From Ostreococcus lucimarinus (taxonomy: Eukaryota): a stretch of DNA of 64,000 bases. Shown piece after piece: positions 4,401 through 53,025 of this stretch; the stretch's first letter is position 1, and the number at the start of each line of letters is the position of its first letter. Location: NCBI GenBank assembly GCA_000092065.1, contig CP000587.1. One strand, written 5' to 3'. Both the position numbers and the translations under genes were made by a program. Under the pieces are notes generated by a model that saw only the letters and a list, made by a program, of their open reading frames with translations, did not search any database and was not told where the DNA came from.

Positions 4401-6766
4401 AGTTCATCCATCTTCGTCAACCACGTCTTCTCGACCTCAGCCTCTCGAGAAGCGAGAGCAGATTCAAGCGAAATCTGCGATTGCTTCTTCAATGCGTCGA
4501 TTTCGGCATCGTACGCTTGCGCCTTTTCCTTGGCAGCTTTCTCGGCGATCTCTAACGCATTGATTCTAGACTCGTACGACGAGACGAGCTTTTGCGTCTT
4601 TGAAGTTTCGGAATCAAAGAGCGCTTTCAAGGCGCGGCGTTCCGCCGCCATCGAGCGTGTAGCGTTCGCCAACTGCTTCTCAAGTTCGGCTTCGGCCGCG
4701 ACACGAGTAGCCTTGGCCGTGAACTCGAGTTGCGCCGCGAGTTCTTGCTTGGCGTCTTCCTTCAGCTGACGTACTTTGCTCTTGGTATCCTTTTCCATCT
4801 TTTCAACTTTGACGGCGTGCGCCGCGCCGAGGCGCTCCATCTTGCCTGACCAGAACAAGTTCAGCCTTTCTTCGGCACTTTCAATCTCCTTCTTCAAGTT
4901 GTCGCCCGTGAACATCTTCATTTTTTCGGATTCGGACTTGAGAAGATCGAACACCGCTCGTCGCTCATTCTTGGACATCTTGAGTTGCTTTTGAAGCTCC
5001 GCGATGGCGGCATCCTTTTCAGCCAACAGCTCCGCCGTCATTTCGAGCTCTTCTTCCTTCATCTCGGCGACGAGCTGCATCTTTTCAATCTCGTTGAGGT
5101 GAATTTGTTCAGCCACGGCATCGATAATTTCTTGCTTGGCGGCTACGAGATCTTGCGCAGCTCCTTCTTTGACTAGTTCGAGGCTCCTCGCGTGCGCGGT
5201 TTGCGCGGCGGCAGCGGCGCTCTCGTACGTCGCCTTGAGGACAGCCATCTCGGCGCGAATGGCTTCGACATCCTTGGCGCTCGCCGCCTTGGTTTGCTCG
5301 AGGCTGTCAGCGTGCGCCTTTTGGGCTGCATCAGCGGCACTTCGGTACGTCGCCTCTAAGGTCGCCTTTTCGGCCGCAAAGGCGCTCGCGCCGCGCTTCT
5401 CGGCTTCGGATTCGACTTGCTGCATCTTGGCCTGGTGCTCGCGCATGAGTTGCGCGATGGCTTCGGTATGCCTGGCGTCGAGATCGGCGAGCTTCTTCTT
5501 GGCGTCTTCATTTATTTTCATCTCCGCCTCAGTGATCGCCGCGCGCATCTCAACCTTCCAAGCCGCTTCCTTATCGTTCATGAGAAGCTCGAGCGCTTGA
5601 CGCTCCGCGAGAGCCTCGGCAATGGCGCGCTGCAACTCGCGTTCGGCTTCGAACTGCACTTCAGCCACGGCGGCGACGAGTTCGGCGGCGGATGTTTCTG
5701 CATTCGCAGCCGCCTCTTCGAGCTTGGAAATAAGCGATAACTTCTCGGCTTCAATGGCCGTGACCTTGGCGTGCCAGTCCGCGGCTTGCGCCTCCTTGAC
5801 GGAGATGGCTTTTTGAAGCTTGGAAACTTCAGAGTACATCATCGCTCTTTGGGCCTGGTACAACGCCTTGGCGGCGCGCACTTTGGACAATAGATCCTTA
5901 CGCTCGTCCGCAAATTTGCCTTCCATGCCCGCGACCTCAGTCTCGAGCTTCGAGATCGTTTCCTTGAGCAAAGCCGTGTCGCGCTCGTGCGCCTCGCGCA
6001 TGCGTCGCTTTTCGGCTTCAAACTGCGCCTTGGCTTGTTCGAGAGCCTTGGCCTTGTCGGCGGCGTGTGAGTTATTTTGATCGCGCAACTTTGTGATGTC
6101 CATCTGCAAACGGGCGATTTCACGCTTGTGGCGCTCCTCCACGCGCGACATTTCCATCGCAAACTGAGATTGCTTCTGCTCGAGCTCAGCCATCTCGGCT
6201 TCAAACTCGCGCATCATCACCTCGCGAAGCGCCTCGAGGCGTTCGAAAGACTTGGCCCCCCGAGCCATCGCCTGCGCGTGAACTTGCGCGTCGTACGATC
6301 CTTCAAACATGGACGAATCGGCGAGCGTGCGAACCAACCACGCGGCCGCGCACGTCGCCGCGCACGCCGCGCCCGCGCTGAGCACGCACGTCGCGCTCAC
6401 CTTGTACGCTTGGACGACGACGATGGACAACAGAGACCCGAACGCATACGTCACGCACATCGCCAACGCCCCCGGCGCGCTCGCCATCCCGCCAAATTTA
6501 CTCCACACGTACGCCGACACCAGCGTCGCGAGCGTCGCCGCGGACGCACGAATCGCGCTCGCCCCCGGCGTCGCCGCCCACGTCAATCCGCCCGCCGTCA
6601 CAAACGCGTAATCCGCCGCGCACACCGCCCCTACCACCGCTCCCGCCGTGAGCAGCGCCCGCATCGCGGGCGGCGTCGAATTCGGTCCATCATTCGACGA
6701 TCCCGACGGGACTCCCATCGTCGTCGTCGTCGTCGTCGTCGTCGTTTCGTTCGCCTCGTACGTCAT
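1424..6766 (-). CDS. giant membrane-anchored coiled-coil protein (~1780 aa) with internal 34-aa tandem repeats
   Basis: Track ORF 1424..7075(-). The first 103 codons are Arg/Ala-rich and probably 5' leader, so the likely ATG is at 6766 (MTYEANETTTTTTTTTMGVPS; alternative ATG at 6718). Downstream are several Ala-rich hydrophobic segments (putative TMs), then about 1,500 aa of heptad-rich E/K/A/L sequence, ending in a hydrophobic tail IPVWAYYALGVATAILPRIIAGGL. Three near-identical 34-aa repeats (ARDAALARASELEKEVATLTKNAVDPKELAxLAS) are encoded by a 102-bp tandem repeat. Confidence 0.65.
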   Translation of the reverse strand: MTYEANETTTTTTTTTMGVPSGSSNDGPNSTPPAMRALLTAGAVVGAVCAADYAFVTAGGLTWAATPGASAIRASAATLATLVSAYVWSKFGGMASAPGALAMCVTYAFGSLLSIVVVQAYKVSATCVLSAGAACAATCAAAWLVRTLADSSMFEGSYDAQVHAQAMARGAKSFERLEALREVMMREFEAEMAELEQKQSQFAMEMSRVEERHKREIARLQMDITKLRDQNNSHAADKAKALEQAKAQFEAEKRRMREAHERDTALLKETISKLETEVAGMEGKFADERKDLLSKVRAAKALYQAQRAMMYSEVSKLQKAISVKEAQAADWHAKVTAIEAEKLSLISKLEEAAANAETSAAELVAAVAEVQFEAERELQRAIAEALAERQALELLMNDKEAAWKVEMRAAITEAEMKINEDAKKKLADLDARHTEAIAQLMREHQAKMQQVESEAEKRGASAFAAEKATLEATYRSAADAAQKAHADSLEQTKAASAKDVEAIRAEMAVLKATYESAAAAAQTAHARSLELVKEGAAQDLVAAKQEIIDAVAEQIHLNEIEKMQLVAEMKEEELEMTAELLAEKDAAIAELQKQLKMSKNERRAVFDLLKSESEKMKMFTGDNLKKEIESAEERLNLFWSGKMERLGAAHAVKVEKMEKDTKSKVRQLKEDAKQELAAQLEFTAKATRVAAEAELEKQLANATRSMAAERRALKALFDSETSKTQKLVSSYESRINALEIAEKAAKEKAQAYDAEIDALKKQSQISLESALASREAEVEKTWLTKMDELERAHKVQIERINADHAKAIAESQSKLKSAEAAQAEAIKAKMAQLETDLAKTTKSLEDQLAAAREDAARQLAAEKSRTAEAIQAAAIQAEDGSAAKKELDALTAKFSSTESEYKSTVQKLEAEIKALELKAAAAGTDAKAQFEAEIATLNAKLKEAEEEIKELESQLSEAKSAAANKVAELEKHFADEMHELRSAFDAQAKEGVAAVSSERDALSARIAALEAEHDQNLSLAKADAEKAKASAVQSLADVDAQISARLAEQKAELDAKLAAQIEELRKRTDADVAAASKALADAKAQYEADVAALKAQNARDLTAAKEAAESADAVLLSKISKLETEQKSALQKAKEQVEAEYGAKLTKAQAEIDALKAKLADAEKQNAAQAEKELADALTKAALIPGLQQQVDELTNSLTSSKASYESTLNKLQQDHAAEIDKLNKDHVAALKDASDASDLKAQISALEAQLQSEKDKLAKSLTDAEAQRAELEASSKTALERARSQVIAQAEDQRKKLEQMFLDESAKARAAFEAEVAEYEKLVKQATADLKKAHADELSSIVAQHKSELSQALAKVDTTSAGKVTALEAEKAKLEKAIADTNAALTKASADAKSASNDAASAKAALEKLEQEVASLTNARDAALARASELEKEVATLTKNAVDPKELAALASARDAALARASELEKEVATLTKNAVDPKELATLASARDAALARASELEKEVATLTKNAVDPKELATLATARDAAQARVAELEKSLAAIAEEKSVLANKLSSVDASKAAEMQKLKDELAQLQADLTKALANAQNQRASEIARLTADFESKYASMQQKHESEIDELSRQALVDVSSAEKRADVAEAEIQRLRSETKDVATYKSQIETNEKQLIIVREKLGATEKKLADFLALYGEERKVLEESRKIADDLDRIKRRYATSMEIDESTIDEISSKVEKQLAAADDGEKMQAMMDGRAKGDTVVDVRDIPVWAYYALGVATAILPRIIAGGL
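2212..2517 (-). repeat. 3 x 102-bp near-perfect in-frame tandem repeat inside coiled-coil CDS
   Basis: The string gcgttgccagctccttgggatcgacggcgttcttcgtgagagtcgcgacttccttctccagttcgctcgcgcgagccaaggcggcgtctcgagcgctggcgagc recurs with starts at about 2212, 2314 and 2416 (period 102 bp), with one or two substitutions (T/A residue change). Confidence 0.9.
6721..6745. repeat. (GTC)8 microsatellite encoding the poly-Thr run of the coiled-coil protein N-terminus
   Basis: gtcgtcgtcgtcgtcgtcgtcgtcg seen directly. Confidence 0.9.
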
Positions 6767-7139
6767 CCGCAGCGACCCGTCGCTCGACGCGCGCGTCTCC
6801 GCGCGTCGCCCTCGCGTCGCGCCTCCCCTCGCCCATCCGCCCTCGCCCGGCCTCGCGCGCGCCGCGCCCGCGCGCGCATCGCTCCCGAATCCCATCCCGC
6901 GCGCCGTCGCGCCTCCTCGCACCACGCGCGCGCGCGTCGTCCGTCCCGGCGTCGCCTCGATCGGTGACGTCGCGCGCGTCGTCCGTCGTCCCGCGCGTCC
7001 CGCGCCTCGCACCGCATCGCTCGCCGCGCGCGCGCCCGCGAGCGCGCGCATCGACGTCACACCGCGCGTCGGCATCGTTCACGCGTCGCGCACTCGCGCG
7101 CGTCGACGCCGACGGTCGCCGCGCGCGCGCGATCGCGAT

Positions 7140-15468: not shown

Positions 15469-16287
15469 TCATAAATAATGCGCGCGATTACCCGAGCGCT
15501 GCTCGGCCGCGCGCCGCGCGGCGTACCTGGCGCCGACGGAATTTTTCCGATGATGCCACTGGAGCGCGAGAGGCAGCGCGCGCGTGAACAAAACGTAAAT
15601 CAAACCCACGCCGCCTCCTGCGAGCATGGCGACGCGTCCCGCATCTATTTTCGAACCTTTGGAAGCTTTACGCGATTTCTTGCCGCGCTTCTTCGACGGT
15701 TTCGACGTTTTCGCCTTGTCGGCCGATCCGCTTCGCCGCGCCGCGCGTTCGCTCGACTTGGCCGCCGCACCATCGAAACACCATCGCTCGCCCGGGGCGA
15801 CGTAATCCCATCCCGCGGCTTCACACATCTCTTTTCCCTTATCCCTCACGTCCCCGATCCACTCCGACAGTTTGGTGCAGATCGTATCGCTCGGTCGACA
15901 CGGCACCAACCGCCGCGACCCGTCCTCCGCGAAGAACTCATCCGCGCACGCCCTGTACACCCCATCGCACGCCGCCGCGCACACCGGCACGCCTTCGCTC
16001 ACCCCTACTCTCGCATCGCACACGCTGCACTCCAGCGCGCCCCACGCGTCTCGGCATCGCTCGCCGAACCCGTTCAGCTGCATGTGCACCGCGCGCACGC
16101 GCGCCGCGTCCGTCTGTTCCTTCCCGCAGCACGTCGACCCGCGATGGGCGTCGCAGAACGTCATCCCCGACCCCTTCGCGGGTTTTTGTCCGTGACGCGC
16201 GAACGGGGCGTGGCGCTCCTTGCTCGCGCACGTCGCGCCGTCCGCGGCGCTCGCGGTTTTCGCCGTCAGCATCACCAACGAAGCCAT
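15469..16287 (-). CDS. Cys-rich type-I membrane protein, tentatively folate-receptor-like domain
   Basis: Track ORF 15469..16446; the upstream 53 codons are Arg-rich. ATG at 16287 (MASLVMLTAKTASA, signal peptide). It has about 16 Cys with a CC doublet (TFCDAHRGSTCCGKEQ), and a C-terminal TM (VAMLAGGGVGLIYVLFTRALPLALQW). The folate-receptor assignment is a weak pattern match only. Confidence 0.4.
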   Translation of the reverse strand: MASLVMLTAKTASAADGATCASKERHAPFARHGQKPAKGSGMTFCDAHRGSTCCGKEQTDAARVRAVHMQLNGFGERCRDAWGALECSVCDARVGVSEGVPVCAAACDGVYRACADEFFAEDGSRRLVPCRPSDTICTKLSEWIGDVRDKGKEMCEAAGWDYVAPGERWCFDGAAAKSSERAARRSGSADKAKTSKPSKKRGKKSRKASKGSKIDAGRVAMLAGGGVGLIYVLFTRALPLALQWHHRKNSVGARYAARRAAEQRSGNRAHYL

Positions 16288-16607
16288 CGCGATCGCGACG
16301 CGCGCGCGCGGCGAGGCTCGACGCGCGCGCGAGGCGCGCATCGCGCGCGAGACGCGCGCGCGTCGACGCGCGCGCGCGCGAGACCGCGCGTCACGACGCG
16401 ACGCGCGCGCGGCGTCGGTGAGTGCGGTCGGACCGACGCGCGGCACACGAGCGCGCGCGCGCGAACGACGGCGTCGCGCGCGGTCGCGAGCGCGCGAACG
16501 CGCGGACGCGAACGCGCGCGAACGCGCGGCGGGCGCGAAGGGCGCGCGCGCGGTCGCGCGCGCGACGGGGAGACGCGAAGGGGGACGACGTCACGAAGGC
16601 GAGGAAG

Positions 16608-17378
16608 ATGCGCGCGGTCGACGCGCGCGCGGTGACGACGACGAAGGCGACGACGACGCGCGAGCGCGCGTCACGCGCGTCGCGCGCGTGGTCGACGCGA
16701 GGGAGGGCGACGAAACCGGCGCGGGACGAGAGAGGAGGGAGGCGAGGACGCGGCGGCGCGCTCGAGGCGGCGGCGGAACGCGCGGAGCGAAGCGAAAACG
16801 AAATCTTTAGCGTCGCTCGAGCGCCGGCGTGCGAACTGCTGTCGAATGAGAATGGGGCGTACACGGTGCGGGGGGAGATGACGCTGCGCGGCGTCGCGGC
16901 GTCGAGCGTGTATAATCTATTGACGGATTACGAGGCTTCGCCGCGGGCGTTTCGAGCGGTGCGGAGCGTGAGGGTGATCGAGTGCGAGGGTGATGCGTGC
17001 GTGGCGAGTAATATTTACATCGAGCAGGAGTGTGAATGGAAGTTTTTTGTTTTCGGAGGGGCGTTTCCGTGCGCGTTTGAGGTTGAGGAACGCGACGAAG
17101 AGATGAAGATGAAGTGTTCGCTCGCGCGGGGTCGGCGAGGCACGGGGTTTTTAAAACAGTTTGAGGGGTCGTGGTCGGTGGAGAATACGAGCGAAGGGGT
17201 GCTAATCGAACACACCCTGATGGTGAAGCCGAAACTGACCCCGCCGTACGCGAGTAAAATTTTTGTACAGCAAGTGGAGCAGATTCTCGAAGACGTGGTG
17301 AACGAAATCGAGACGTGGAACGGCGTCGTCTACGGCAAGCCTCCGCATCGCCAGGGCGTGGACGCCTCGATTATTTAA
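16608..17378 (+). CDS. SRPBCC (START/Bet v1-like, polyketide-cyclase-type) domain protein with transit-peptide-like N-terminus
   Basis: Track ORF 16422..17378. The first plausible ATG is at 16608 (MRAVDARAVTTTKATTTRERASRASRAWSTRGRATKPARD). The domain region is IFSVARAPACELLSNENGAYTVRGEMTLRGVAASSVYNLLTDYEASPRAF...FEGSWSVENTSEGVLIEHTLMVKPKL. Confidence 0.5.
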   Translation: MRAVDARAVTTTKATTTRERASRASRAWSTRGRATKPARDERGGRRGRGGALEAAAERAERSENEIFSVARAPACELLSNENGAYTVRGEMTLRGVAASSVYNLLTDYEASPRAFRAVRSVRVIECEGDACVASNIYIEQECEWKFFVFGGAFPCAFEVEERDEEMKMKCSLARGRRGTGFLKQFEGSWSVENTSEGVLIEHTLMVKPKLTPPYASKIFVQQVEQILEDVVNEIETWNGVVYGKPPHRQGVDASII

Positions 17379-26995: not shown

Positions 26996-28129
26996 ATGCG
27001 CGCCATCGCTTTCGCACCGTCCGCGCGCGCGCGCGCGCCCGCGCGCGCGCGCATTCCCGCTCGACGTCGCGGCAGGGACGAAAATAGCACCGCGCCGAGA
27101 CGCGTTCAAACGACGCTCGTGACGCCGCGGACGCGCGCGCTCGAGCGCGGACGCGTCGCGCGCACCGTCGCGGATGAGTACGCGATGACATCCGAGCGCG
27201 AGGGCGCGAACGAGGGTTTCGGAACGAACGAGGAGATGTCAGACGACGTGCGCGCGTTGACGACGCTCGTCGCCGATAGCGACGGCGGCGCGGCGTTGGG
27301 GGCTGACGCGCGGAAGGACGCGGATGCGATGATAGGGAAACTCGAGAGCGTGGGTGCCGACGCGATGGTGAAGCCGAACGACGATCCGAAGATCTTCGGG
27401 TATTACGATGTGAGTTACGTATCCGTCGGAGAGAAGCAAGTGGGAAATCCCGCGGGCGGACGGTTTCGGTCGCCGTTGGGACGGTTTTTGTTCAAGACGA
27501 TCGGGCTCGAGCAAAATTTGTTCGCACCTAATAAGATTGAGAATCGCGTGGCGTTCACGTTGTTTGGGTGCTTGCCGGGGGAGGTGACACTGGAAGGAAC
27601 GTTTGCGCCGGCGGAGGGCGTCGACGACGGACGTACGGTGAAGGCTTCGTTCGGACCACCGGGAATCTCCGTCGCGGGCGGGCCGAAGTTGCGAATCGGC
27701 CCAAAGTCTAGCGTCGTACTCAGCACGACGTATTTGGACGATCACGTCCGTTTGGGGAAAGGATCGCGCGGGAGCTTGTTCGTGTTCACGAGAAAGTCTG
27801 AGGAGAAGGCGGAGCGTGATCACAGACGGTGGGGCATCGGAGGATTGGCGATCGCCATCATGCTCTTAACCGCGCTCGGTCTCGGTATTTTCGGCGTGCA
27901 CGAGCTTAGAACGACGAGTCATACGCTGTATTCGGTAACGGTCGTGCTTGCGTCGGCGATTTCTCTCGCCATGGCGTACATTTTGCGCGACGGCGGAATC
28001 GTCGCCGAGGACGCCGACCTCGACGACGACGTTGGCGAGTTGAGCGAACAGCAAAAGGCGTTCCTCTCCAGAGGACGCGGCGACGGCGAGAATAAAGGCG
28101 AAAACGTGTTCAGTTCGCAAAAGGCGTAG
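26996..28129 (+). CDS. FBN: fibrillin / plastid-lipid-associated protein (PAP) with transit peptide and unusual C-terminal two-TM extension
   Basis: MRAIAFAPSARARAPARARIPARRRG... transit-like. The PAP_fibrillin body includes the hallmark C-terminal motif YLDDHVRLGKGSRGSLFVFTRK. It is followed by hydrophobic segments WGIGGLAIAIMLLTALGLGIFGV and LYSVTVVLASAISLAMAYIL. Confidence 0.75.
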   Translation: MRAIAFAPSARARAPARARIPARRRGRDENSTAPRRVQTTLVTPRTRALERGRVARTVADEYAMTSEREGANEGFGTNEEMSDDVRALTTLVADSDGGAALGADARKDADAMIGKLESVGADAMVKPNDDPKIFGYYDVSYVSVGEKQVGNPAGGRFRSPLGRFLFKTIGLEQNLFAPNKIENRVAFTLFGCLPGEVTLEGTFAPAEGVDDGRTVKASFGPPGISVAGGPKLRIGPKSSVVLSTTYLDDHVRLGKGSRGSLFVFTRKSEEKAERDHRRWGIGGLAIAIMLLTALGLGIFGVHELRTTSHTLYSVTVVLASAISLAMAYILRDGGIVAEDADLDDDVGELSEQQKAFLSRGRGDGENKGENVFSSQKA

Positions 28130-39913: not shown

Positions 39914-40537
39914 CTAATCGAGACGCTCGCCTCGTCCTTCAACCGCCCCTCGCACGGGCGTCAGCAATCCATTCGCGCTCAAACTAATTGTCGCTGGGTC
40001 CCGCACCAAGTCGAACGCCAACAACTCTAAATCGTCGTCCACATAGCATTTGCCGTCTGCCCGTGTCTCGAGCGAAGACCAACTCCTCGTCGACGCGCCG
40101 ACCAGTCCCCCTCCCTCGTAAATCTCCCGTATCGCCCGCCCGCTCTCCGTATCCAAGATCTTGACGTATCCCATCAGCGTCCTATCTCCATCGCACCAAT
40201 ACACATCCACGACTCGACAGCACGCGCGCGTCTCGTCGTCGGCGTCCCGGAACTCGGCCTCGTCCGTAGCCGCCGGGTGTTCCAACTTCCCGTACGCTCG
40301 ACCGCGCCGCACGCGCGCCGCGACGTACGCCGCGACTTCCCTGTGCAGTATGGGTTTCGGATACACCCGTCCGTTGCGATTCACGCGATCGCACCGTGCG
40401 AGAACGCCGTGTAAATACAGCTCGCCTTTGTTGTTCGCCAACGACCGCGCGAGCGCGTCGACGCGCGATCGGCGCTCGATCTCGGCCTCGTCCGCGAGCG
40501 CGCGCTCGACGGTGTGCACGGACACGCACACGCCCAT
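39914..40537 (-). CDS. HK97-family (peptidase S78/U35-like) prohead serine protease homolog
   Basis: Track ORF 39914..40624 starts at TTG. The first ATG is at 40537 (MGVCVSVHTVERAL..., 207 aa). Composition is non-repetitive. Blocks resemble S78: ELYLHGVLARCDRVNRNGRVYPKPIL (vs GYAxVFN...GxF), GKLEHPA (vs LWxHD), CDGDRTLMGYVKILDTESGRAIREIYEGGGLVGASTRSW (vs DExGL.....L..T..G.....l...G...g.SiGF), DDDLELLAFDLVRDPATIS (vs L.EVSlVt.PA). The identification is from memory of family conservation, not a database hit. Confidence 0.45.
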   Translation of the reverse strand: MGVCVSVHTVERALADEAEIERRSRVDALARSLANNKGELYLHGVLARCDRVNRNGRVYPKPILHREVAAYVAARVRRGRAYGKLEHPAATDEAEFRDADDETRACCRVVDVYWCDGDRTLMGYVKILDTESGRAIREIYEGGGLVGASTRSWSSLETRADGKCYVDDDLELLAFDLVRDPATISLSANGLLTPVRGAVEGRGERLD

Positions 40538-40714
40538 CGCGCGCCGAGGTTCGGCGTCGAACGCGCGACTTCGCGCGTCGCCGTCTGCGGATAAAGCGCG
40601 CGCGTCCCGCTCTGAGCGGGACAACCCGACGTCTCGGCGCGAGCCTCGTCGCGAGGCGTGCGATCGCGCGCGACTGAAGAGTGCTCGCGCGCCGTCCTCG
40701 GGGCGTCGCGCGCG

Positions 40715-43117
40715 ATGTCCTCGCTCGAGGCGATTCGCTACGCGCGCGGAAACCTCGAGCTGCTCGATCAGCTCGCGCTGCCGCTGGAGACGAAATACAT
40801 CGACGTGCGCGACTGCAACGCGTGCTGGCGATGTATCAAAGATATGAACGTGCGAGGAGCGCCGGCGATCGCGATCGCAGCGGCGCTGGCGCTGGCGGTG
40901 GAGCTAGAGGCGAAGCGAGGGACGCTGACGACGTGCGAGGCGGCGGAGGCGTTCGTGCGCGAGCGGTTTGATCACATGTACACGTCGAGACCGACGGCGG
41001 TGAACTTGGGGGAGGCGAAAAATAGGATACAAGCACTCGCAAAGCGATTGAGTGAAAGCGGAGACGTGTCAGGGATGATTGAAGGGGTGATTGAAGGATG
41101 CGAGGCGATGCACGCCGAGGACGTGGCGTCGTGCAGAGCCATCGGAGACAAGGGTGCTGCGGCGCTGTTGCGCGCGTGCGGCGCTAAAGATGGAGAAAAT
41201 ATCAAAGTGATGACGTGCTGTAACACTGGATCGCTCGCGACGGCGGGCTACGGTACTGCGTTGGGGGTGATTCGTGCTCTTTGGGAGTCGGGGCGACTCG
41301 AGCGGGCGTATTGCTTGGAGACGCGGCCGTACAATCAAGGGTCGAGGTTGACCGCGTACGAGCTGGTGTACGAAAAAATTCCAGGGACGTTGATTTGTGA
41401 TAATATGGCGGCGGCGCTCATGGCACGAGGAGACGTGGACGCGATCGTCGTGGGTGCGGATAGAGTCGCCGCAAACGGCGACTTTGCTAACAAAATCGGC
41501 ACCTATTCGCTCGCGGTGAACGCGAAGCATCACGGAGTGCCCATGTTCACCGCAGCACCGGTGACGACGTTAGATCCCGAGACGGCGACTGGGGCAGATA
41601 TTCACATCGAAGAACGACCGGGCGAAGAAGTGACGCACTCGCTCGGTAAGCGTGTGGCGGCGGAAGGAATAGACGTGTGGAACCCATCCTTCGACGTGAC
41701 CCCTGCGGCGCTCCTCACGGGTGTCATCACGGAGCACGGTGTGATTGAAAAGAACGCCAGTGGATTGTTTCCCGTTGCAGACTTCGTAGCTCAAGCAAAG
41801 GGAGGTACATTGACGGTCGCAAAGCCGAGCGGTCCACCGGGATTCATCGCACTTAATTGCGAAACCGTACTCGATTACGCAGCGTCAAAGGAAAACGTTG
41901 CCAAAGTTTTGGGAGGCGCCTCGACGCGCGCGTCGTGGTCGGCGAAAGAAATCGGTGACGGTAACATCAACTTTGTCTACATCGTCACCGGTGCGTCTGC
42001 AAATAAATCCGTCATCGTGAAGCAAGGTTTGCCATTCGTACGCTGTGTTGGCGAAAGTTGGCCCCTCACGCAGGAGCGCGTTCGATATGAAGCCGAGGCG
42101 CTCATTCAAGCGCACAAATTTTGCCCCGAGCACGTCCCGGAAGTGTACGTGTACGACGCTACGATGGCAACTATCGTCATGCGATACCTAGAACCACCGC
42201 ACATCATCCTCCGAGGCGGTATTATTGAAGGTAAAGTGTACCCAAAGTTGGCCGAACACGTCGGCGAATACTTGGCGACGACACTCTACAAGTCGTCCGC
42301 GTTGGCCGTCGGCGGTGCCGAACTTCGACGCGCACGTCAAGCTTTCGGGCAAAACGAGGATATGTGCGAGCTCACTGAACAAGTCATCTTCACCGAACCG
42401 TACGGTAAGGCTGATAACAATCATTGGACGACGCCACAGCTCGACGACATCGTCGGCGAGATTCAATCCGACGCCGCACTCAAGCGCGCCATCAACGCGC
42501 TGAAGGAAAAATTTATGACTGAAGCGCAAGCGCTGCTGCACGGCGACTTGCACACCGGCTCTTTGATGTGCACGGAGACGACAACATTCGCGATCGACAA
42601 CGAGTTCGCGTTTTATGGGCCGATGGGATTCGACATTGGCGCATTTTTAGCAAACCTACTGTTAGCCTACTTCTCTCAAAACGGTTGGGCGAAGTGCAAC
42701 GGAGAAGATCGCGGCGCACAACGCGACTGGCTCTTGAGCGCTTTTGCGTCTACGTGGGGTATATTCGAAAAACGTTTCTTAGAACAGTGGAACGAACAAG
42801 GAGTGCGCGACGACTGTGGTGGTTTGTCGCCCGCAATTTTGTACGGTAAAGATGTGAAGAGCGGCGCGAGCGCTCTCGAGGAACATCAACGCACGTTCAT
42901 GCGAAAGATATGGGCCGATACTCTCGGTTTCGCGGGTGCTAAAATGATTCGTCGCATCATCGGCATCGCGCACGTCGCTGATTTGGATAAGATACCAGAC
43001 GCCAACGTACGCGCCCAGTGCGAACGCGCGGCGTTAAAGTGCGGTCGCGAGCTCATGCTCAACGCGACGACGCTCACGCCCGAGTCGATCGTCGACGTCG
43101 TGAAAAGCTGCGAGTAG
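40715..43117 (+). CDS. mtnA-mtnK: fused methylthioribose-1-phosphate isomerase (MtnA, eIF2B-like) + methylthioribose kinase (MtnK) bifunctional methionine-salvage protein
   Basis: Track ORF 40658..43117 starts at GTG. ATG at 40715 gives MSSLEAIRYARGNLELLDQLALPLETKYIDVRDCNACWRCIKDMNVRGAPAIAIAAALALAV (canonical MtnA N-terminus), through ...TRPYNQGSRLTAYEL...GADRVAANGD...FDVTPAALLTGVITEHGV. Then a linker at about aa 375-395. Then the MtnK-type kinase (SAKEIGDGNINFVYIV..., LHGDLHTGSLM, APH-like), ending ...VVKSCE*. Confidence 0.8.
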   Translation: MSSLEAIRYARGNLELLDQLALPLETKYIDVRDCNACWRCIKDMNVRGAPAIAIAAALALAVELEAKRGTLTTCEAAEAFVRERFDHMYTSRPTAVNLGEAKNRIQALAKRLSESGDVSGMIEGVIEGCEAMHAEDVASCRAIGDKGAAALLRACGAKDGENIKVMTCCNTGSLATAGYGTALGVIRALWESGRLERAYCLETRPYNQGSRLTAYELVYEKIPGTLICDNMAAALMARGDVDAIVVGADRVAANGDFANKIGTYSLAVNAKHHGVPMFTAAPVTTLDPETATGADIHIEERPGEEVTHSLGKRVAAEGIDVWNPSFDVTPAALLTGVITEHGVIEKNASGLFPVADFVAQAKGGTLTVAKPSGPPGFIALNCETVLDYAASKENVAKVLGGASTRASWSAKEIGDGNINFVYIVTGASANKSVIVKQGLPFVRCVGESWPLTQERVRYEAEALIQAHKFCPEHVPEVYVYDATMATIVMRYLEPPHIILRGGIIEGKVYPKLAEHVGEYLATTLYKSSALAVGGAELRRARQAFGQNEDMCELTEQVIFTEPYGKADNNHWTTPQLDDIVGEIQSDAALKRAINALKEKFMTEAQALLHGDLHTGSLMCTETTTFAIDNEFAFYGPMGFDIGAFLANLLLAYFSQNGWAKCNGEDRGAQRDWLLSAFASTWGIFEKRFLEQWNEQGVRDDCGGLSPAILYGKDVKSGASALEEHQRTFMRKIWADTLGFAGAKMIRRIIGIAHVADLDKIPDANVRAQCERAALKCGRELMLNATTLTPESIVDVVKSCE

Positions 43118-43202: not shown

Positions 43203-45947
43203 CTACCTCGTCTTGCGTTTGTCCAACCACTTTGTGGCCGACGACTTCGTAGACGATCGCGCATCTTCGCGGCGCACATCCTTTGCCTCGACTTTTGGCC
43301 CGTAAGGGATGTGTGATCGAGTGATTTGCATCAAACCAAAAGCAGAAATCGGCATGAATGATATTTTTCCTCGATCACGTGTCGCCGCATCCGCGAACTC
43401 CGCCTCAATCTGTCTATATATTTGATCTCGCGTTTTGGGATTGCCCGCGTTGACAAAGTCAATCACGATGATTCCCGAAATATTCCTCCGCCTAATTTCC
43501 GCCGCTGCGGTGCGAGCAGCCATGACATTGATTTCCGCCACACTCATACGGCTCGAGCCGGTGTTTACATCGATCGCTGTCAGCGCTTCTGTGGATTGAA
43601 TCACGAGCTGCGCCGACTGCGTATCTGGAATCGTCACGCGTTCGCTAAACGTCCTCGCGCGTCGGATCAAGTTTTGCATTTTCACTTGAGACCCCACGCG
43701 GACGACGGTTTGCATTTCTTCGGTATCCGCGCGCAGCGTCGACACGCTCTTTGTGATTTCTTCAAGTTCTTCCGGCTTGCTGTCGTTCGGCATGACGATG
43801 CTGTGAATGTTCGTGCTCGCGAGCTCGCGAAGAACCATTCCTTTGAAATTTGTGTTGTCGCGCCACAATAATCGCGGCACCAAAGGCTGCTGCCGCTTCC
43901 GCGACTTCGTGACGGATTTCGCAGCACTGATGCACATAGACTTCCACCGACGCGTGAGTTCGCTTACCTCGCGCGTGACCACGTCCGGAGGCGCGCTCGC
44001 GCTCGCGGAGCGCATGATGAGATGCGCGCCGCCGCCGTGAAACCCGGTGAAAAGAGGCGCTTCATTCTTATCTTTTATCTTCTCGAGGCCATATCGCCAC
44101 GTTTGCTTCAAAGTATTCTCGCCCCACTGCGCGAGCGAGTCGCGCGTCACGACGCTCAATTTCTTACTGGCGTGCGCGCTTACCCCATTCGCCGTGCCTT
44201 TGAAAACCGTAAACCGTCCGGTGAGGCTCGGCTCCGCCGTCGCGATCGCGCCTTTGTGTTCCCGTGAATCTCGAATGATTTCAAGAATCACGGCATCGCC
44301 GATGTTATACATTCCAAAGGCTTGCTTACCAGCGCGCGCAAGCTGGTCGTTCATATCCGAATGCATCATGGAGCTGATGAGCTTCATCTCGACGTCTTCG
44401 TCTTCATCCGGTAGAGACACTTCCGACGCCTCGATGACGACTTTGTCGCTCTCTTGGCCTTTCCACCAAGCCGCCGGCTGTGACAGACCGTCGCGCAGTA
44501 ACACCGTCTTTGTAAACTTGCCATTCTTCGTCGCCACGCCGACGAGCAGTGATTTCATGTTCGGCACCTTGCTCACCACCGTACCGAGATAGACGTCGCC
44601 GACGCGCATCGCTTGGTCGCCTTCTTCTTCGTCGCGAACGTTTTCCAAAATCTCCACCGCCTCACCGTCCTCCGTCAGAACCGCGCAGTCGTCGCTCGGG
44701 AACCAAATCTCCGTCTTCACGTTCCGATCGTCTCTCGCGCGCAGAGACTTGCTCGCACCGCCGGTGTAGTACTGAAGCACTTGTTTCAGCGCCGGTTCGT
44801 TCATGCGAAACGTATCCGTCAGAGACGTAAACTCTCGCTTCTCTTCGGTCCACACGTCGACAACCTCCACCATGAACGCGTAGCTCGGAAGCATTAGCGC
44901 GCTCGTCCCACTTCTCCACACGTAGGTCGGCCCCGTGCTCTCGGCGACGTCGTCAATCACCGCGAAATTATACTCGCACACCACGCACTCCTCGCCGACC
45001 ACGCGACTCGTCGGCACCTCCAAACAAACCGTCGCGCTCCACCAATCGTTCCCTTCGGGCGCGCACCGAATCGACCCTCCCAGCACTCGCCACGTCCCGA
45101 GCTCGGCCGTCGACCCGACGAGCACGACGCGCTGCCCGAACCGCGTTCGTTTCCGCACTCGAAACGTCGTCACGCATCGTCCCGGCGTCCCGATCAGCGC
45201 GAACGCCCCTCCGTCCCCCCTCGCGAGCCCTGGTCCGCTCCCCGACGTCGACGTCATTCTCGCCCCCTCCTCCTCGCTCCGACTCGCCCGTTCCTCTTCC
45301 TCGAACCGATTCGCCCTTCGTCCCGCGCGTCTCTCCTCCCCCGCGCCCGTCCCGCGCGATCGTCCGCTCTCCAGCACCACCGCCATGTCCGCCCGCGCCG
45401 TCGCGCGCGCCTCCTCCGACGCCTCGCGCCCCTCCCCCGCTTCCTCACCCGTCGCCCGCGTCCATCGCGCGTCCATCGCGTCCATCGCGCGCCGATCCAT
45501 CGCGCGCCAGCGCGGCATCGTCGTCCCGAACCGTCGCGCCCCCGTCCTCGTCGCGCGCGTCCGCCTCGCGCCGCTCGCGCGCGCGCCGCGCACGCGCGCC
45601 ATCGCGTCCACCGGCATCGGCGCTCGCGCGCGCGCGTCGGCGTCGCGGTGCGTCGCGGTGCGTCGCGATTCGATCCGTCGTCGCGCTCGCGAAATATCTT
45701 TGTCGTCGTTCGAATCGAATCGAATCGAATCGCGCGCGCGCGCGGCCCGCGCGTCCGTCGCGCGTCCATCGCGTCGCTCGATTCGCGATCGTCGTCGACG
45801 TCGCGATCGGTCGCGATCGGTCGCCGGGTCGTCGCGCGTCCGTGAACGCGTCGATTCGGATTCGTCCCGCGCGGGACGCGATGGCGCGACGGCGCGAACG
45901 ACGGATGGCGCGGCACACGACGACGACGGCGACGACGACGACCGCAT
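43203..45947 (-). CDS. RNE: RNase E/G-family endoribonuclease (plastid-type) with N-terminal CBM20 starch-binding-like domain
   Basis: ATG at 45947 (MRSSSSPSSSCAAPSVVRAVAPSRPARDESES, transit-like), then about 200 aa of R/D/E-rich low complexity; an alternative ATG lies at 45257 (MTSTSGSG). CBM20-like: RFGQRVVLVGSTAELGTWRVLGGSIRCAPEGNDWWSATVCLEVPTSRVVGEECVVCEYNFAVIDD...YVWRSG. S1 domain: GDVYLGTVVSKVPNMKSLLVGV. Catalytic core: IDVNTGSSRMSVAEINVMAARTAAAEIRRRNISGIIVIDFVNAGNPKTRDQIYRQIEAEF...ISAFGLMQITR (cf. E. coli IDINSAR...GGLIVIDFIDM...ISRFGLLEMSR). Confidence 0.75.
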   Translation of the reverse strand: MRSSSSPSSSCAAPSVVRAVAPSRPARDESESTRSRTRDDPATDRDRSRRRRRSRIERRDGRATDARAARARDSIRFDSNDDKDISRARRRIESRRTATHRDADARARAPMPVDAMARVRGARASGARRTRATRTGARRFGTTMPRWRAMDRRAMDAMDARWTRATGEEAGEGREASEEARATARADMAVVLESGRSRGTGAGEERRAGRRANRFEEEERASRSEEEGARMTSTSGSGPGLARGDGGAFALIGTPGRCVTTFRVRKRTRFGQRVVLVGSTAELGTWRVLGGSIRCAPEGNDWWSATVCLEVPTSRVVGEECVVCEYNFAVIDDVAESTGPTYVWRSGTSALMLPSYAFMVEVVDVWTEEKREFTSLTDTFRMNEPALKQVLQYYTGGASKSLRARDDRNVKTEIWFPSDDCAVLTEDGEAVEILENVRDEEEGDQAMRVGDVYLGTVVSKVPNMKSLLVGVATKNGKFTKTVLLRDGLSQPAAWWKGQESDKVVIEASEVSLPDEDEDVEMKLISSMMHSDMNDQLARAGKQAFGMYNIGDAVILEIIRDSREHKGAIATAEPSLTGRFTVFKGTANGVSAHASKKLSVVTRDSLAQWGENTLKQTWRYGLEKIKDKNEAPLFTGFHGGGAHLIMRSASASAPPDVVTREVSELTRRWKSMCISAAKSVTKSRKRQQPLVPRLLWRDNTNFKGMVLRELASTNIHSIVMPNDSKPEELEEITKSVSTLRADTEEMQTVVRVGSQVKMQNLIRRARTFSERVTIPDTQSAQLVIQSTEALTAIDVNTGSSRMSVAEINVMAARTAAAEIRRRNISGIIVIDFVNAGNPKTRDQIYRQIEAEFADAATRDRGKISFMPISAFGLMQITRSHIPYGPKVEAKDVRREDARSSTKSSATKWLDKRKTR

Positions 45948-47509: not shown

Positions 47510-48664
47510 CTAACTGTTGTTTTCCGTCGCTCCGTACGAATCGTCATTGAATTCCGCGAAGAGCCAATTCTCGTACTGCTTGGACTTCTTCCCCGATCCA
47601 TACATCATGACTGCGTTTACGACGAGAGACGCGATGCCAAGGAACGCGACGCCTGCACCCACGGTCGTGGACAGCGCGAGAACGTCGAACTTACGCCCAA
47701 CTCCATCCACTGCAAAGCGAATCCTCGGCCCGTAGCCCTTGACCAAAAGCCTCACGTCTTTGGAATTTCCCGTTTGGTTGTACGTCACGCCTTGCATCGG
47801 TGCCGGTTCGCCCACGTTATGCGCAGAGACCCAACGGATATTATAGCCTTTCGACAGTGTGTTTATCTCCGAATCGGTGACTTGACGCACCTTATACGGC
47901 GTCTTCGGCGCGCACGATTCGATGCCTCGATCGAGATCGCAGTCAAACTGCACGTCCAAGCGACCGTCCCAACCTTTCTTCGCGATATCTTCCACGCGCA
48001 TTCCGCCGCTCGCGAGCAAATCATTCAAGGTCCATAAATTCCATCCCATCGTAGGCTCAGTACCGTTCAAGTTCGTCCACAGTAAGTTCCCGTCGCCCTT
48101 TTTATTTGGGATTCCTGGAAACTCGACGCTGATTCGAGTAAAGACGGTGAAATTTCCCACATTTTCCAGCACGTTCACACGGTCGTCCTCTGGTTCACCA
48201 GGACACCAGCCCTCGATTTCGCACCGCTTTTCTCCCGAGCTTCCGCCCGCGTCCACGCACGCTCCCGTCATCCGCCCGCTCGCGCTAAACGCCCCCGCTC
48301 GACAAATCGACGCGTCCTCCGTGCACGCCTCGTCGTCGTCCATTCCCGGGCACCGTCCTCTCGCTTGCAGCGTCGTCATCAGCGCCGTCGCCACAAAAAA
48401 TCCACTCGGTTCATATATCACCAAATCATTCGCGTCGTACACCGTCTCCAGCCCCGTCGCCGCGTCTCGCAGCACCGCCTGGCCTTTGATTTTCAAACCA
48501 ATGTTCCCAACCGCCTGCGACCGCAGCTGGTAGCCGTGCTTGAGGTACACCAGATACCATCCGACGTAGCTCAGAACGACGCCGACGATGGCGTAATACA
48601 GCGCGCCGAGTCGCCACGAGCGAATGACGACGCTCTTTTGCGTCGTGTACGACAGTCCCACCAT
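47510..48664 (-). CDS. P2X: P2X purinoceptor-like ATP-gated cation channel
   Basis: ATG at 48664. TM1 region YTTQKSVVIRSWRLGALYYAIVGVVLSYVGWYLVYLKHGYQ (cf. P2X YETxKSVVVKSW...). Ten extracellular Cys. Signature GWDGRLDVQFDCDLD (P2X GxxGxxxxxxxCDLD), NFTVFTRISVEF, K..Y.IRWV. TM2 VGAGVAFLGIASLVVNAVMMY. Confidence 0.85.
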   Translation of the reverse strand: MVGLSYTTQKSVVIRSWRLGALYYAIVGVVLSYVGWYLVYLKHGYQLRSQAVGNIGLKIKGQAVLRDAATGLETVYDANDLVIYEPSGFFVATALMTTLQARGRCPGMDDDEACTEDASICRAGAFSASGRMTGACVDAGGSSGEKRCEIEGWCPGEPEDDRVNVLENVGNFTVFTRISVEFPGIPNKKGDGNLLWTNLNGTEPTMGWNLWTLNDLLASGGMRVEDIAKKGWDGRLDVQFDCDLDRGIESCAPKTPYKVRQVTDSEINTLSKGYNIRWVSAHNVGEPAPMQGVTYNQTGNSKDVRLLVKGYGPRIRFAVDGVGRKFDVLALSTTVGAGVAFLGIASLVVNAVMMYGSGKKSKQYENWLFAEFNDDSYGATENNS

Positions 48665-50822: not shown

Positions 50823-51686
50823 TCACGAATCGCGAACGTACGCGTCGAAACCATCCATCGCGGTGAGACCTCGGACGGCACCTCTATCGTCGAACGGTGT
50901 CCAAGACGCATCGTCGGGCGCGAAGATGCGCACCGTACGCCCGCTGCCATCCACCGCGCTGAAGTTGAACCTCGCTATCGTTCGCGTCATCGCGTCCAAC
51001 GCCTTTCCCGCCGACTTCGGCGACCGGTGCAGCACAGCGGCGTCCTCGAAAACACACAAAACACCACCGCGCGCGTCGATCGGCACGAAATTCCCCTTTC
51101 GCACCGATTTTGACAATATCCCTTGATTCTCAAAATCAACCTCGAAAGTCTCCGTCGTCGATTCCTCGTCCTCGTCGGCGTCCACGAGCGCGTGCTCGAA
51201 CCATTTCCCTCCGCTCGCCTCTTCCTCCTCCTCCTCCGCCGCCAAAATCGCGTGCGCGACGTACGCCCCCGCCATGTACCCATCCCTGTGCCACATCACG
51301 TTCGTCCCTCGATGCGGCGCGAACACCCCCGCGTCGCCCGCCGCCGTCGCCGCCGTCGTCGTCCCGAAGAGCGCTCGAAAGATCCTCTCGTGGATGAACG
51401 TCTCCAGCGCCGCGCGCGCCTCCGCGCGCTCGCCCGCGCGCGGCGTCATCGCGCACCCCTCGGCGTTCGCCGTCCACGCGCGCGGCGTCCCCATCGTCGC
51501 GCGCAGCGCGTCGAACGCCTCTCTCTCTCTCTCGCGCGCGCCCGTCCCTCGCGCGCGCACGCGCGCGAGCGGCGGCGCGCGCGTCGAGCGGCGGCGCCTG
51601 TAGCACACCACGTCGACCCCATCGCTCGTCGCGCGCGCGCACGCGTCGACGTCGTCGCCGAACGCCGCGCGCGTCGTCGTCGGCAT
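50823..51686 (-). CDS. possible 2OG-Fe(II) oxygenase superfamily protein (HxD...H...R pattern)
   Basis: Track ORF 50823..52499; the upstream ~270 codons are Ser/Ala/Arg low complexity. ATG at 51686 (MPTTTRAAFGDDVD...); alternative MGTPRAWTAN. Candidate facial triad/2OG ligands: VMWHRDGYMAG ... AVLHRSPKSAGKALDAMTRTIARFNF. Weak call. Confidence 0.35.
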   Translation of the reverse strand: MPTTTRAAFGDDVDACARATSDGVDVVCYRRRRSTRAPPLARVRARGTGAREREREAFDALRATMGTPRAWTANAEGCAMTPRAGERAEARAALETFIHERIFRALFGTTTAATAAGDAGVFAPHRGTNVMWHRDGYMAGAYVAHAILAAEEEEEEASGGKWFEHALVDADEDEESTTETFEVDFENQGILSKSVRKGNFVPIDARGGVLCVFEDAAVLHRSPKSAGKALDAMTRTIARFNFSAVDGSGRTVRIFAPDDASWTPFDDRGAVRGLTAMDGFDAYVRDS

Positions 51687-51711
51687 CGAGTTCGTTACAG
51701 CGCGTCGCGCG

Positions 51712-53025
51712 ATGCCGCGCGCGGCGGCGCTCGCGCGCGCGCGCGCGTCGTCGACCGTCGCGACGGACGCGCGACGTAGGCGTCGAGCGCTTCGACGCGC
51801 GTCGCGCGCGCCGTCGCGCGTCGACGACGACGCGGACGCGTTCGCGACGCTCGACGACGCGCGACGACGCGACGAAGCGCTCGACGCGTACGTCGCGCGC
51901 GTCGTCGAGGCGCGCGCGCCGCGCGCGAGCGACGTCGGAGCGATGATCGTCGCGAGCGCGAGGGCCGGGATCGAGCGCGGACGGGCGAGGCGGGGCGAGG
52001 CGGTGAGCCGCGAGGCGAGGATGGCGGCGGCGAAGGCGCGAGGCGACGCGGCGACGGCGTTCAACGCGGCGATCTCGGCGTATAATCGCATGGGAATGTC
52101 GGAATCGTGCGTGGCGTTGATGGAAATGATGCGCGATGCGCTCGACGTGGCGCCGGACGTGGTGACGTACGCGCTGTGCGCGAGCGCGTTGACGAGGGAG
52201 GGGAGACTTCGCGACGCGGAGGCGACGCTCGAGCGCGCCTCGGAAGCGTTGCGAAGAGGAACGCGGCCAAATAGGAAACAGAAGAAACGCGCGAAGAATG
52301 ATGATGAATGGTCGATGGTCGTGTTGAGAGATAGCGACGGGATCGCGGCCGTTGTTAAGCCGGCGGGCGTGCTGACGCATCCCGTCGAAGGCGGCGGGAG
52401 TGAGCTCACGCTCATGGACGCCGCGCTCTCGCGCTTTGACGGACAGCTGAGCGATTTAAACGGCTTGGATAAGCGCGGAATTGTGAGTAGATTAGACAAA
52501 CCGACGTCTGGGGTGGTGTTGCTGGCGAAAAATAACGCCTCTCACGCCGAACTCTTGACGCAATTCTATCAGCGGTGTGTGGTGAAACAGTACTGTGCTT
52601 TGCTCGACGGGACGCTCCCCGCCTCCGGCTCGGAGAGCACCCCGCTCGACGGAAGATCGGCGACGAGTGAGTACGAAGTGATGGAAACGTTCATCGGACC
52701 GTCGTGGTCATATTCTCTCGTGCGCGTCGAGCCCAAGAGCGGTCGAAAACATCAGATACGGCGGCACATGGCTTTGCTCGGTGCGCCGCTCGTCGGCGAT
52801 CCGCTGTACAGGACTGCTCGCACGAAGCAGATCAATCCGAACCCGCCCGAGTGTGTGTTGAAGGCGCTGTCGGTGGGAAAACCCGGAACGATATTCTGGC
52901 TTCACGCCAGTGCCGTAGAATATAGCGGTATGCCAAACGGAGAGCGAATTGTCGTCTCCGCACCGTTGCCGAGCGCGTTTGAGACGCTCCTGGCGAGTCT
53001 TCGCGCTGGCGCGCGAGACGAGTAG
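51712..53025 (+). CDS. RluA-family pseudouridine synthase with N-terminal PPR-like helical repeats (organellar)
   Basis: ATG at 51712. R/A-rich presequence. PPR-like segments: AFNAAISAYNRMGMSESCVALMEMMRDALDVAPDVVTYALCASALTREGRL. Catalytic RluA motif: GIVSRLDKPTSGVVLLAKN (Asp in RLDxxTSG). Then HQIRRHMALLGAPLVGDPLY. TGTAA in the 3' region. Confidence 0.75.
   Translation: MPRAAALARARASSTVATDARRRRRALRRASRAPSRVDDDADAFATLDDARRRDEALDAYVARVVEARAPRASDVGAMIVASARAGIERGRARRGEAVSREARMAAAKARGDAATAFNAAISAYNRMGMSESCVALMEMMRDALDVAPDVVTYALCASALTREGRLRDAEATLERASEALRRGTRPNRKQKKRAKNDDEWSMVVLRDSDGIAAVVKPAGVLTHPVEGGGSELTLMDAALSRFDGQLSDLNGLDKRGIVSRLDKPTSGVVLLAKNNASHAELLTQFYQRCVVKQYCALLDGTLPASGSESTPLDGRSATSEYEVMETFIGPSWSYSLVRVEPKSGRKHQIRRHMALLGAPLVGDPLYRTARTKQINPNPPECVLKALSVGKPGTIFWLHASAVEYSGMPNGERIVVSAPLPSAFETLLASLRAGARDE

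Follow-up and report, generated by a model that had tools for sequence, protein, structure and literature searches.

A predicted bifunctional methionine-salvage enzyme of the known MtnAK type encoded by one open reading frame of Ostreococcus lucimarinus

A single reading frame carries MtnA and MtnK

We analysed a stretch of 64,000 nucleotides of the Ostreococcus lucimarinus genome (contig CP000587.1, assembly GCA_000092065.1; hereafter the window), in which one open reading frame (ORF) combines two enzymes of methionine salvage, the S-methyl-5-thioribose-1-phosphate isomerase MtnA and the S-methyl-5-thioribose kinase MtnK. We are highly confident that the product of this ORF is a bifunctional enzyme of methionine salvage, of the known MtnAK type and probably cytosolic. 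A first-pass annotation, made from the sequence, had proposed such a fusion in an uninterrupted frame of 800 amino acids (aa) at 40715-43117, with both domains complete. ORF and codon checks bore this out, with neither a stop codon nor a frameshift at the junction, and both domains were recovered by Pfam (IF-2B and APH) and by the NCBIfam equivalog models TIGR00512 and TIGR01767, each above its cut-off. The occurrence of MtnA and MtnK in one ORF is far beyond chance. The main features of the gene are as follows.

40715..43117, plus strand: complete, intron-less MtnAK coding sequence, a single ORF of 800 codons plus TGA/stop
40715..41752, plus strand: MtnA domain, aa 1-346, eIF2B-like fold, S-methyl-5-thioribose-1-phosphate isomerase (from TIGR00512, Pfam and structure 4ldq)
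41753..41845, plus strand: inter-domain segment, aa 347-377, a short C-terminal tail helix of MtnA followed by a variable flexible linker (from conservation and the structure model)
41846..43114, plus strand: MtnK domain, aa 378-800, APH/protein-kinase-like fold, S-methyl-5-thioribose kinase (from TIGR01767 and structures 2pyw and 2olc)

The ORF listing of the window gives a single uninterrupted frame at 40658-43117 (plus strand), whose first ATG stands at 40715, 34 codons downstream of an in-frame stop (nt 40613-40615). From this ATG, 800 sense codons run to the stop with no internal stop. The product is identical to protein P0001, and independent metagenome gene callers treat it as a single gene. 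The peptides quoted in the first-pass annotation all lie where they should, with MSSLEAIRY at aa 1, FDVTPAALLTGVITEHGV at aa 326-343, SAKEIGDGNINFVYIV at aa 409-424 and LHGDLHTGSLM at aa 608-618.

An alternative start at GTG 40658, which would give the 819 aa of the prokaryote-style call P0133, was rejected for a eukaryotic nuclear gene, and also because the ATG-initiated protein is already in register with human MRI1 at its residue 3 (residue 2 of MRI1). The start of the ORF thus coincides with the conserved N-terminus of MtnA, with no N-terminal extension, which points to a protein lacking a targeting peptide and probably cytosolic.

In the protein cluster of the 800-aa MtnAK, no NCBI source stands behind any of the 15 members listed (40 of its 112 members are covered), unlike neighbouring O. 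lucimarinus proteins, which do carry NCBI and UniProt accessions. It may be that the reference gene model of the locus departs from the simple ORF by another start or a spurious intron.

The N-terminal half is an MtnA isomerase domain

Analysis of the N-terminal half assigned aa 46-345 to the Pfam family IF-2B (E-value 1.1e-75) and aa 5-345 to TIGR00512 (salvage_mtnA), with 446.6 bits against a trusted cut-off of 279 and coverage of profile positions 1-334 of 335. Three MtnA structures, 4ldq, 2a0u and 2yrf, were matched strongly and over their full length; for human MRI1 (4ldq) the alignment runs from end to end (E-value 6e-108). Two catalytic residues, whose roles we take from the structural literature on B. 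subtilis and human MtnA, could be placed by motif alignment.

41219..41221, plus strand: codon of Cys169, the MtnA active-site cysteine, equivalent to human MRI1 Cys168 and B. subtilis C160 (TCCNTG/THCNTG motif)
41459..41461, plus strand: codon of Asp249, the MtnA proton donor, equivalent to human MRI1 Asp248 and B. subtilis D240 (VGADR motif)

Neither residue varies across the 55 fused homologues that were aligned.

Since the Pfam family bears the name IF-2B, the same half could in principle belong elsewhere in the eIF2B family, to the ribose-1,5-bisphosphate isomerases or to the translation-factor subunits, as old annotations of Micromonas implied; one Chlorella entry is still named 'translation initiation factor fusion', and weak matches to eIF2B alpha, beta and delta structures were obtained (E-value about 1e-10). 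The family-specific models decide against this reading. The score for TIGR00512 lies well above its cut-off, whereas those for the ribose-1,5-bisphosphate isomerase model TIGR00511 (172 versus 314), IF-2B alpha (53 versus 339) and IF-2B delta (48 versus 249) fall far below theirs; the best matches in the PDB are bona fide MtnA enzymes (E-value 1e-107), and the catalytic cysteine and aspartate are present. The same argument was made by Salim et al. (PMC2759508). We regard a non-MtnA identity as most unlikely, and the N-terminal half is best read as MtnA, with a predicted isomerase activity on S-methyl-5-thioribose-1-phosphate (MTR-1-P).

The C-terminal half is an MtnK kinase domain

The C-terminal half matched the Pfam family APH at aa 410-654 (E-value 1.2e-10) and TIGR01767 (MTRK) at aa 379-788, with 471.3 bits against a trusted cut-off of 275 over profile positions 3-391 of 401. 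It aligned with residues 6-401 of the Arabidopsis kinase MTK (2pyw; E-value 1e-117) and with B. subtilis MtnK (2olc; E-value 5e-72). The positions corresponding to the reference residues of the B. subtilis enzyme, whose roles we assume from the structural papers on that protein, were located by alignment.

42545..42547, plus strand: codon of Asp611, the MtnK catalytic and substrate-binding aspartate of the HGDLH motif, equivalent to B. subtilis Asp233
Asn419 of MtnK, equivalent to B. subtilis N44
Lys436 of MtnK, equivalent to B. subtilis K61
Asp628 and Glu630 of MtnK, equivalent to B. subtilis D250 and E252
Arg747 of MtnK, equivalent to B. subtilis R340

All six residues are invariant in the 55 fused homologues, and the motifs of the family are intact: the Gly-rich loop GDGN(L/I)N, the ATP-binding lysine, the HGDLH catalytic loop, the DxE metal motif and the substrate-binding arginine. 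The C-terminal half can be assigned to MtnK, with a predicted ATP-dependent kinase activity on 5-methylthioribose (MTR).

One of the two domains might nevertheless be catalytically dead, a regulatory or scaffolding remnant in a monofunctional protein. Such a loss is conceivable for any fused paralogues, with nothing specific in its favour here, and it sits badly with the fact that, in both domains, all the known catalytic and ligand residues are invariant. Comparison of the codons with an orthologue of 86% identity (L002) also revealed strong purifying selection on both, with ratios of nonsynonymous to synonymous substitution rates (dN/dS) of 0.10 in the MtnA domain and 0.06 in the MtnK domain. 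A dead domain has, in our judgement, a negligible chance, and both domains of MtnAK are predicted to be active.

The domains are joined by a translated, flexible linker

Conservation across the 55 homologues drops to 0.30-0.39 in aa 347-377, compared with 0.61-0.69 in both domains, the poorly conserved stretch proper being aa 360-377. The segment between the domain cores is present in all 55, with a length of 31 to 75 residues. AlphaFold2 modelling on the 55-sequence alignment gave two well-folded domains (mean predicted local distance difference test score, pLDDT, 90.6) and a coil at 363-383; only two stretches have a pLDDT below 50, residues 368-370 in the linker and 172-174 inside the MtnA domain. 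The variable linker measures about 20-30 aa, in agreement with the length of about 20 aa suggested by the first-pass annotation, and the MtnA and MtnK domains are tethered by this flexible linker and fold independently.

The fusion could have been an artefact, either of two adjacent separate genes, mtnA and mtnK, with a spacer that happens to be open in frame, or of a mis-join in the assembly. The evidence for one gene in O. lucimarinus is the genomic sequence, and in prokaryotes the two genes may be adjacent but separate, as in the metagenome-assembled genome (MAG) of a deltaproteobacterium described below (L016). Against an artefact, the spacer is kept in frame in the orthologues of 86% and 65% identity (L002 and L003) despite near-saturated synonymous change: with L002 the linker has a dN/dS of 0.20 at a synonymous divergence (dS) of about 1.3, which is near-saturated, and with L003 the sole indel at the junction is a clean one of 3 nt. 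Rather than an intergenic stretch open by accident, the spacer is thus a translated segment subject to purifying selection. Moreover, the MtnK half has no methionine near its start, and the N-terminus of Arabidopsis MTK aligns directly after the linker. Over 100 clusters, drawn from many assemblies, have the same architecture, including ORFs from transcriptome assemblies of other species (P0045, P0067, P0084 and P0111) that carry both domains, and an expressed sequence tag (EST) clone from Tetrahymena spans the fusion (PMC2759508). The refuting conditions set out in the first-pass annotation all came out negative; the artefactual explanation is largely refuted, and we give it hardly any weight.

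The fusion is general in green algae and non-seed land plants

A homologue search returned 2100 matches at an E-value of 1e-20 or below. Both Pfam domains were found in 119 of the 120 best of these, the exception, P0092, being a protein of 681 aa with 71% query coverage; the full-length fused homologues among the best 120 measure about 790-880 aa. The closest fused relatives beyond the protein's own 90% cluster are 86% identical, among the matches listed. Fused proteins occur in the algae Bathycoccus prasinos, Chloropicon, Chlorella, Micractinium, Trebouxia, Coccomyxa, Volvox, Gonium and Bryopsis, and in the streptophytes Chlorokybus, Chara, Closterium, Marchantia, Riccia, Calypogeia, Selaginella, Diphasiastrum and Ceratopteris. 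Among green algae and land plants that bear no seeds, the MtnAK fusion is general, and it has no relation to genome compaction. The first-pass annotation had taken it for a compact-genome trait, a view that does not hold, as Chara, Ceratopteris and Diphasiastrum carry it on contigs of 2-200 Mb. Its statement that the two enzymes are separate proteins in plants is right for Arabidopsis, whose MTK is a standalone protein of 420 aa (2pyw), and wrong for chlorophytes, charophytes, liverworts, lycophytes and ferns.

The Arabidopsis kinase, the single representative of seed plants in our comparison, shares 64-65% identity with the kinase halves of the fused fern and lycophyte proteins, 47% with the kinase domain of the window and 37% with the B. 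subtilis enzyme. In a neighbour-joining tree it is nested among fused streptophyte proteins, grouping with embryophytes in 64 of 100 bootstraps and with embryophytes, Chara and Closterium in 74 of 100. This nesting is moderate evidence, suggesting that separate genes are not ancestral here and that the fused gene was split secondarily on the lineage to Arabidopsis.

Two patterns, both derived from the MtnA half, were used to scan 185,579 genomes of bacteria and archaea, one per species. No A-then-K fusion appeared among the best 80 loci, which is a weak test given the origin of the patterns; 79 of them matched the MtnA half exclusively. The sole listed locus matching both halves, L016 in the deltaproteobacterial MAG, holds separate ORFs, mtnK followed by mtnA (the pathway order), in different frames and with overlapping ends. 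On this same weak test, a prokaryotic origin of the fusion was rejected.

The closest prokaryotic MtnA proteins among the matches listed (L004-L015) belong to Silvanigrellales/Oligoflexia and to MAGs of unclassified Pseudomonadota, at 48-55% identity, and stand apart from Acidobacteriota and Firmicutes matches at 44-50%. This group may have a bearing on where eukaryotic MtnA came from.

We also consider a tentative scenario, which we hold to be slightly less probable than its negation. The A-then-K fusion would be ancestral in all Viridiplantae and shared with ciliates and stramenopiles, having arisen independently of the bacterial K-then-A operon; it would later have been split into MTI and MTK toward Arabidopsis, presumably in the ancestor of seed plants. 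As separate proteins, MtnA and MtnK each form homodimers, and the fused protein might form a higher-order assembly channelling MTR-1-P. Our literature search found no description of either the fission event or a higher-order MtnAK assembly. The spread from green algae to ferns, set against the standalone Arabidopsis kinase, makes a tidy case of gene fusion followed by apparent fission, a pattern that would not surprise a specialist.

Proposed function

In methionine salvage, methylthioadenosine is cleaved by MtnN to give MTR; phosphorylation of MTR by MtnK at the expense of ATP yields MTR-1-P, which MtnA converts to its isomer methylthioribulose-1-phosphate (MTRu-1-P). On the basis of its domains and conserved residues, MtnAK would be equipped with both activities, covering steps two and three of this route. 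MTR supplied from methylthioadenosine by the nucleosidase MtnN would be phosphorylated with ATP by the C-terminal MtnK domain to MTR-1-P, which the N-terminal MtnA domain would then isomerise to MTRu-1-P. As the first-pass annotation had pointed out, the order of the domains is opposite to that of the pathway, with the isomerase before the kinase.

The likely benefit of the fusion would be obligatory 1:1 co-expression and co-localisation of the two enzymes. Direct substrate channelling by MtnAK, as put forward in the first-pass annotation, is a plausible hypothesis on which the inter-domain geometry of our model gives no evidence, because its predicted template modelling score (pTM) of 0.61 makes the orientation of the domains unreliable.

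Four points weigh against the reading of a bifunctional enzyme. Channelling is without structural support, for the reason just given. The single-gene reading in O. lucimarinus is based on the genomic ORF and its orthologues. No other methionine-salvage gene, MtnN included, was found among the 21 large ORFs of the window that were scanned. Finally, the activity of MtnAK is treated as predicted, with no enzymatic characterisation, in the papers that mention it (PMC2759508, PMC3698126 and PMC6302742).

The presence of MtnAK would place Ostreococcus, like plants and many bacteria, on the salvage branch of MtnN and MtnK rather than on that of the phosphorylase MtnP. We propose to annotate the gene as bifunctional MTR-1-P isomerase/MTR kinase (MtnAK), and not as 'translation initiation factor fusion' or 'methylthioribose kinase' alone. 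Beyond this correction the finding has little consequence.

Local gene context

The gene order ECH, Peptidase_S77, MtnAK, RNase E/G is common to two independent metagenome contigs, one of which comes from a species of only 86% identity, and MtnAK was called as a single gene on both. The ECH-family neighbour is an exact match to XP_001418689.1 of O. lucimarinus CCE9901. Other large ORFs of the window are typical nuclear eukaryotic genes, encoding AlaRS, PP2A-A, TCP-1, RAVE, an alpha-amylase and a DEAD-box helicase.

Four further observations were made on the surrounding ORFs, the first three of which concern the following features.

39914-40624, minus strand: ORF of 207-236 aa, head-to-head with MtnAK, Pfam PF03420 Peptidase_S77 (E-value 5e-18)
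43203-45947, minus strand: ORF of 914 aa with a CBM20 starch-binding domain at aa 260-333 and an RNase E/G catalytic domain at aa 574-878
47510-48664, minus strand: P2X ATP-gated channel homologue of 384 aa, PF00864 (E-value 2.9e-83), exact match to XP_001418924.1

The Peptidase_S77 family, that of the T4 gp21-type prohead core serine protease, is represented by an ORF whose position is kept on two related contigs. Its homologues form 17 clusters only: its own cluster, short fragments, proteins of 56-64% identity and one match at 29%. Those of 56-64% identity measure about 200-270 aa and lie on metagenome contigs, presumably from sister picoalgae. A phage capsid-maturation protease fold is apparently fixed in a picoeukaryote nuclear genome.

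In L002 the gene caller split the counterpart of the 914-aa ORF into CBM_20 (459 aa) and RNase_E_G (251 aa) proteins. The exact 914-aa sequence is absent from the protein collection searched, and either its gene model or its start is therefore in doubt. Among algae, P2X receptors are already known from Ostreococcus tauri. Lastly, five long ORFs, at 1424-7075 (minus strand), 211-1443, 15478-16635 and 26996-28129 (plus strand) and 50823-52499 (minus strand), one of them of 1883 aa, had no Pfam match at an E-value of 1e-5 or below and are probably lineage-specific Ostreococcus proteins.

Comparison with known systems

The fusion was described in Tetrahymena thermophila by Salim, Negritto and Cavalcanti in 2009 (PLoS Genet, PMC2759508), who named the gene mtnAK, with MtnA at the N-terminus and MtnK at the C-terminus, and whose evidence included the EST clone mentioned above, its two end reads matching both termini of the protein. 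They listed mtnAK in Ostreococcus tauri, Micromonas pusilla, Micromonas sp. RCC299 and Phaeodactylum tricornutum, and noted that the Micromonas genes were mis-annotated as a translation-factor fusion. The report was repeated by Nakano et al. in 2013 (PMC3698126) and in the review of Sekowska, Ashida and Danchin in 2018 (PMC6302742). The novelty of the Rosetta-stone link put forward in the first-pass annotation is thereby lost, the fusion having been published in 2009 and named in Ostreococcus and Micromonas. Beyond that paper, our literature search found nothing relevant on the fusion in non-seed plants or green algae.

The bacterial mtnK-mtnA pairs (B. subtilis ykrT/ykrS and L016) comprise the same two enzymes, linked and presumably co-expressed, but as separate ORFs in the order K then A, unlike the fused A-then-K protein. 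Standalone Arabidopsis MTK (2pyw) and the plant and human MtnA proteins (MTI1 and MRI1; 4ldq) have orthologous catalytic domains with the same residues, and are separate polypeptides, unlike MtnAK. MtnBD of Tetrahymena and MtnBC/DEP1 of Arabidopsis are likewise fused salvage enzymes of the same pathway but involve other enzymes; MtnBD acquired an additional activity, a gain that is not indicated for MtnAK.

The nearest known system is the Tetrahymena protein (XP_001031773), which has the same two domains in the same A-then-K order, in 779 aa compared with 800 aa for the protein of the window, and the same predicted role, the conversion of MTR to MTRu-1-P. The published MtnAK set differs from the protein of the window in species only, O. 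lucimarinus not being named individually in PMC2759508. The MtnAK fusion is already known: the O. lucimarinus gene is an orthologue of the one published in 2009 from a sister species, and the fusion is seen across Viridiplantae.

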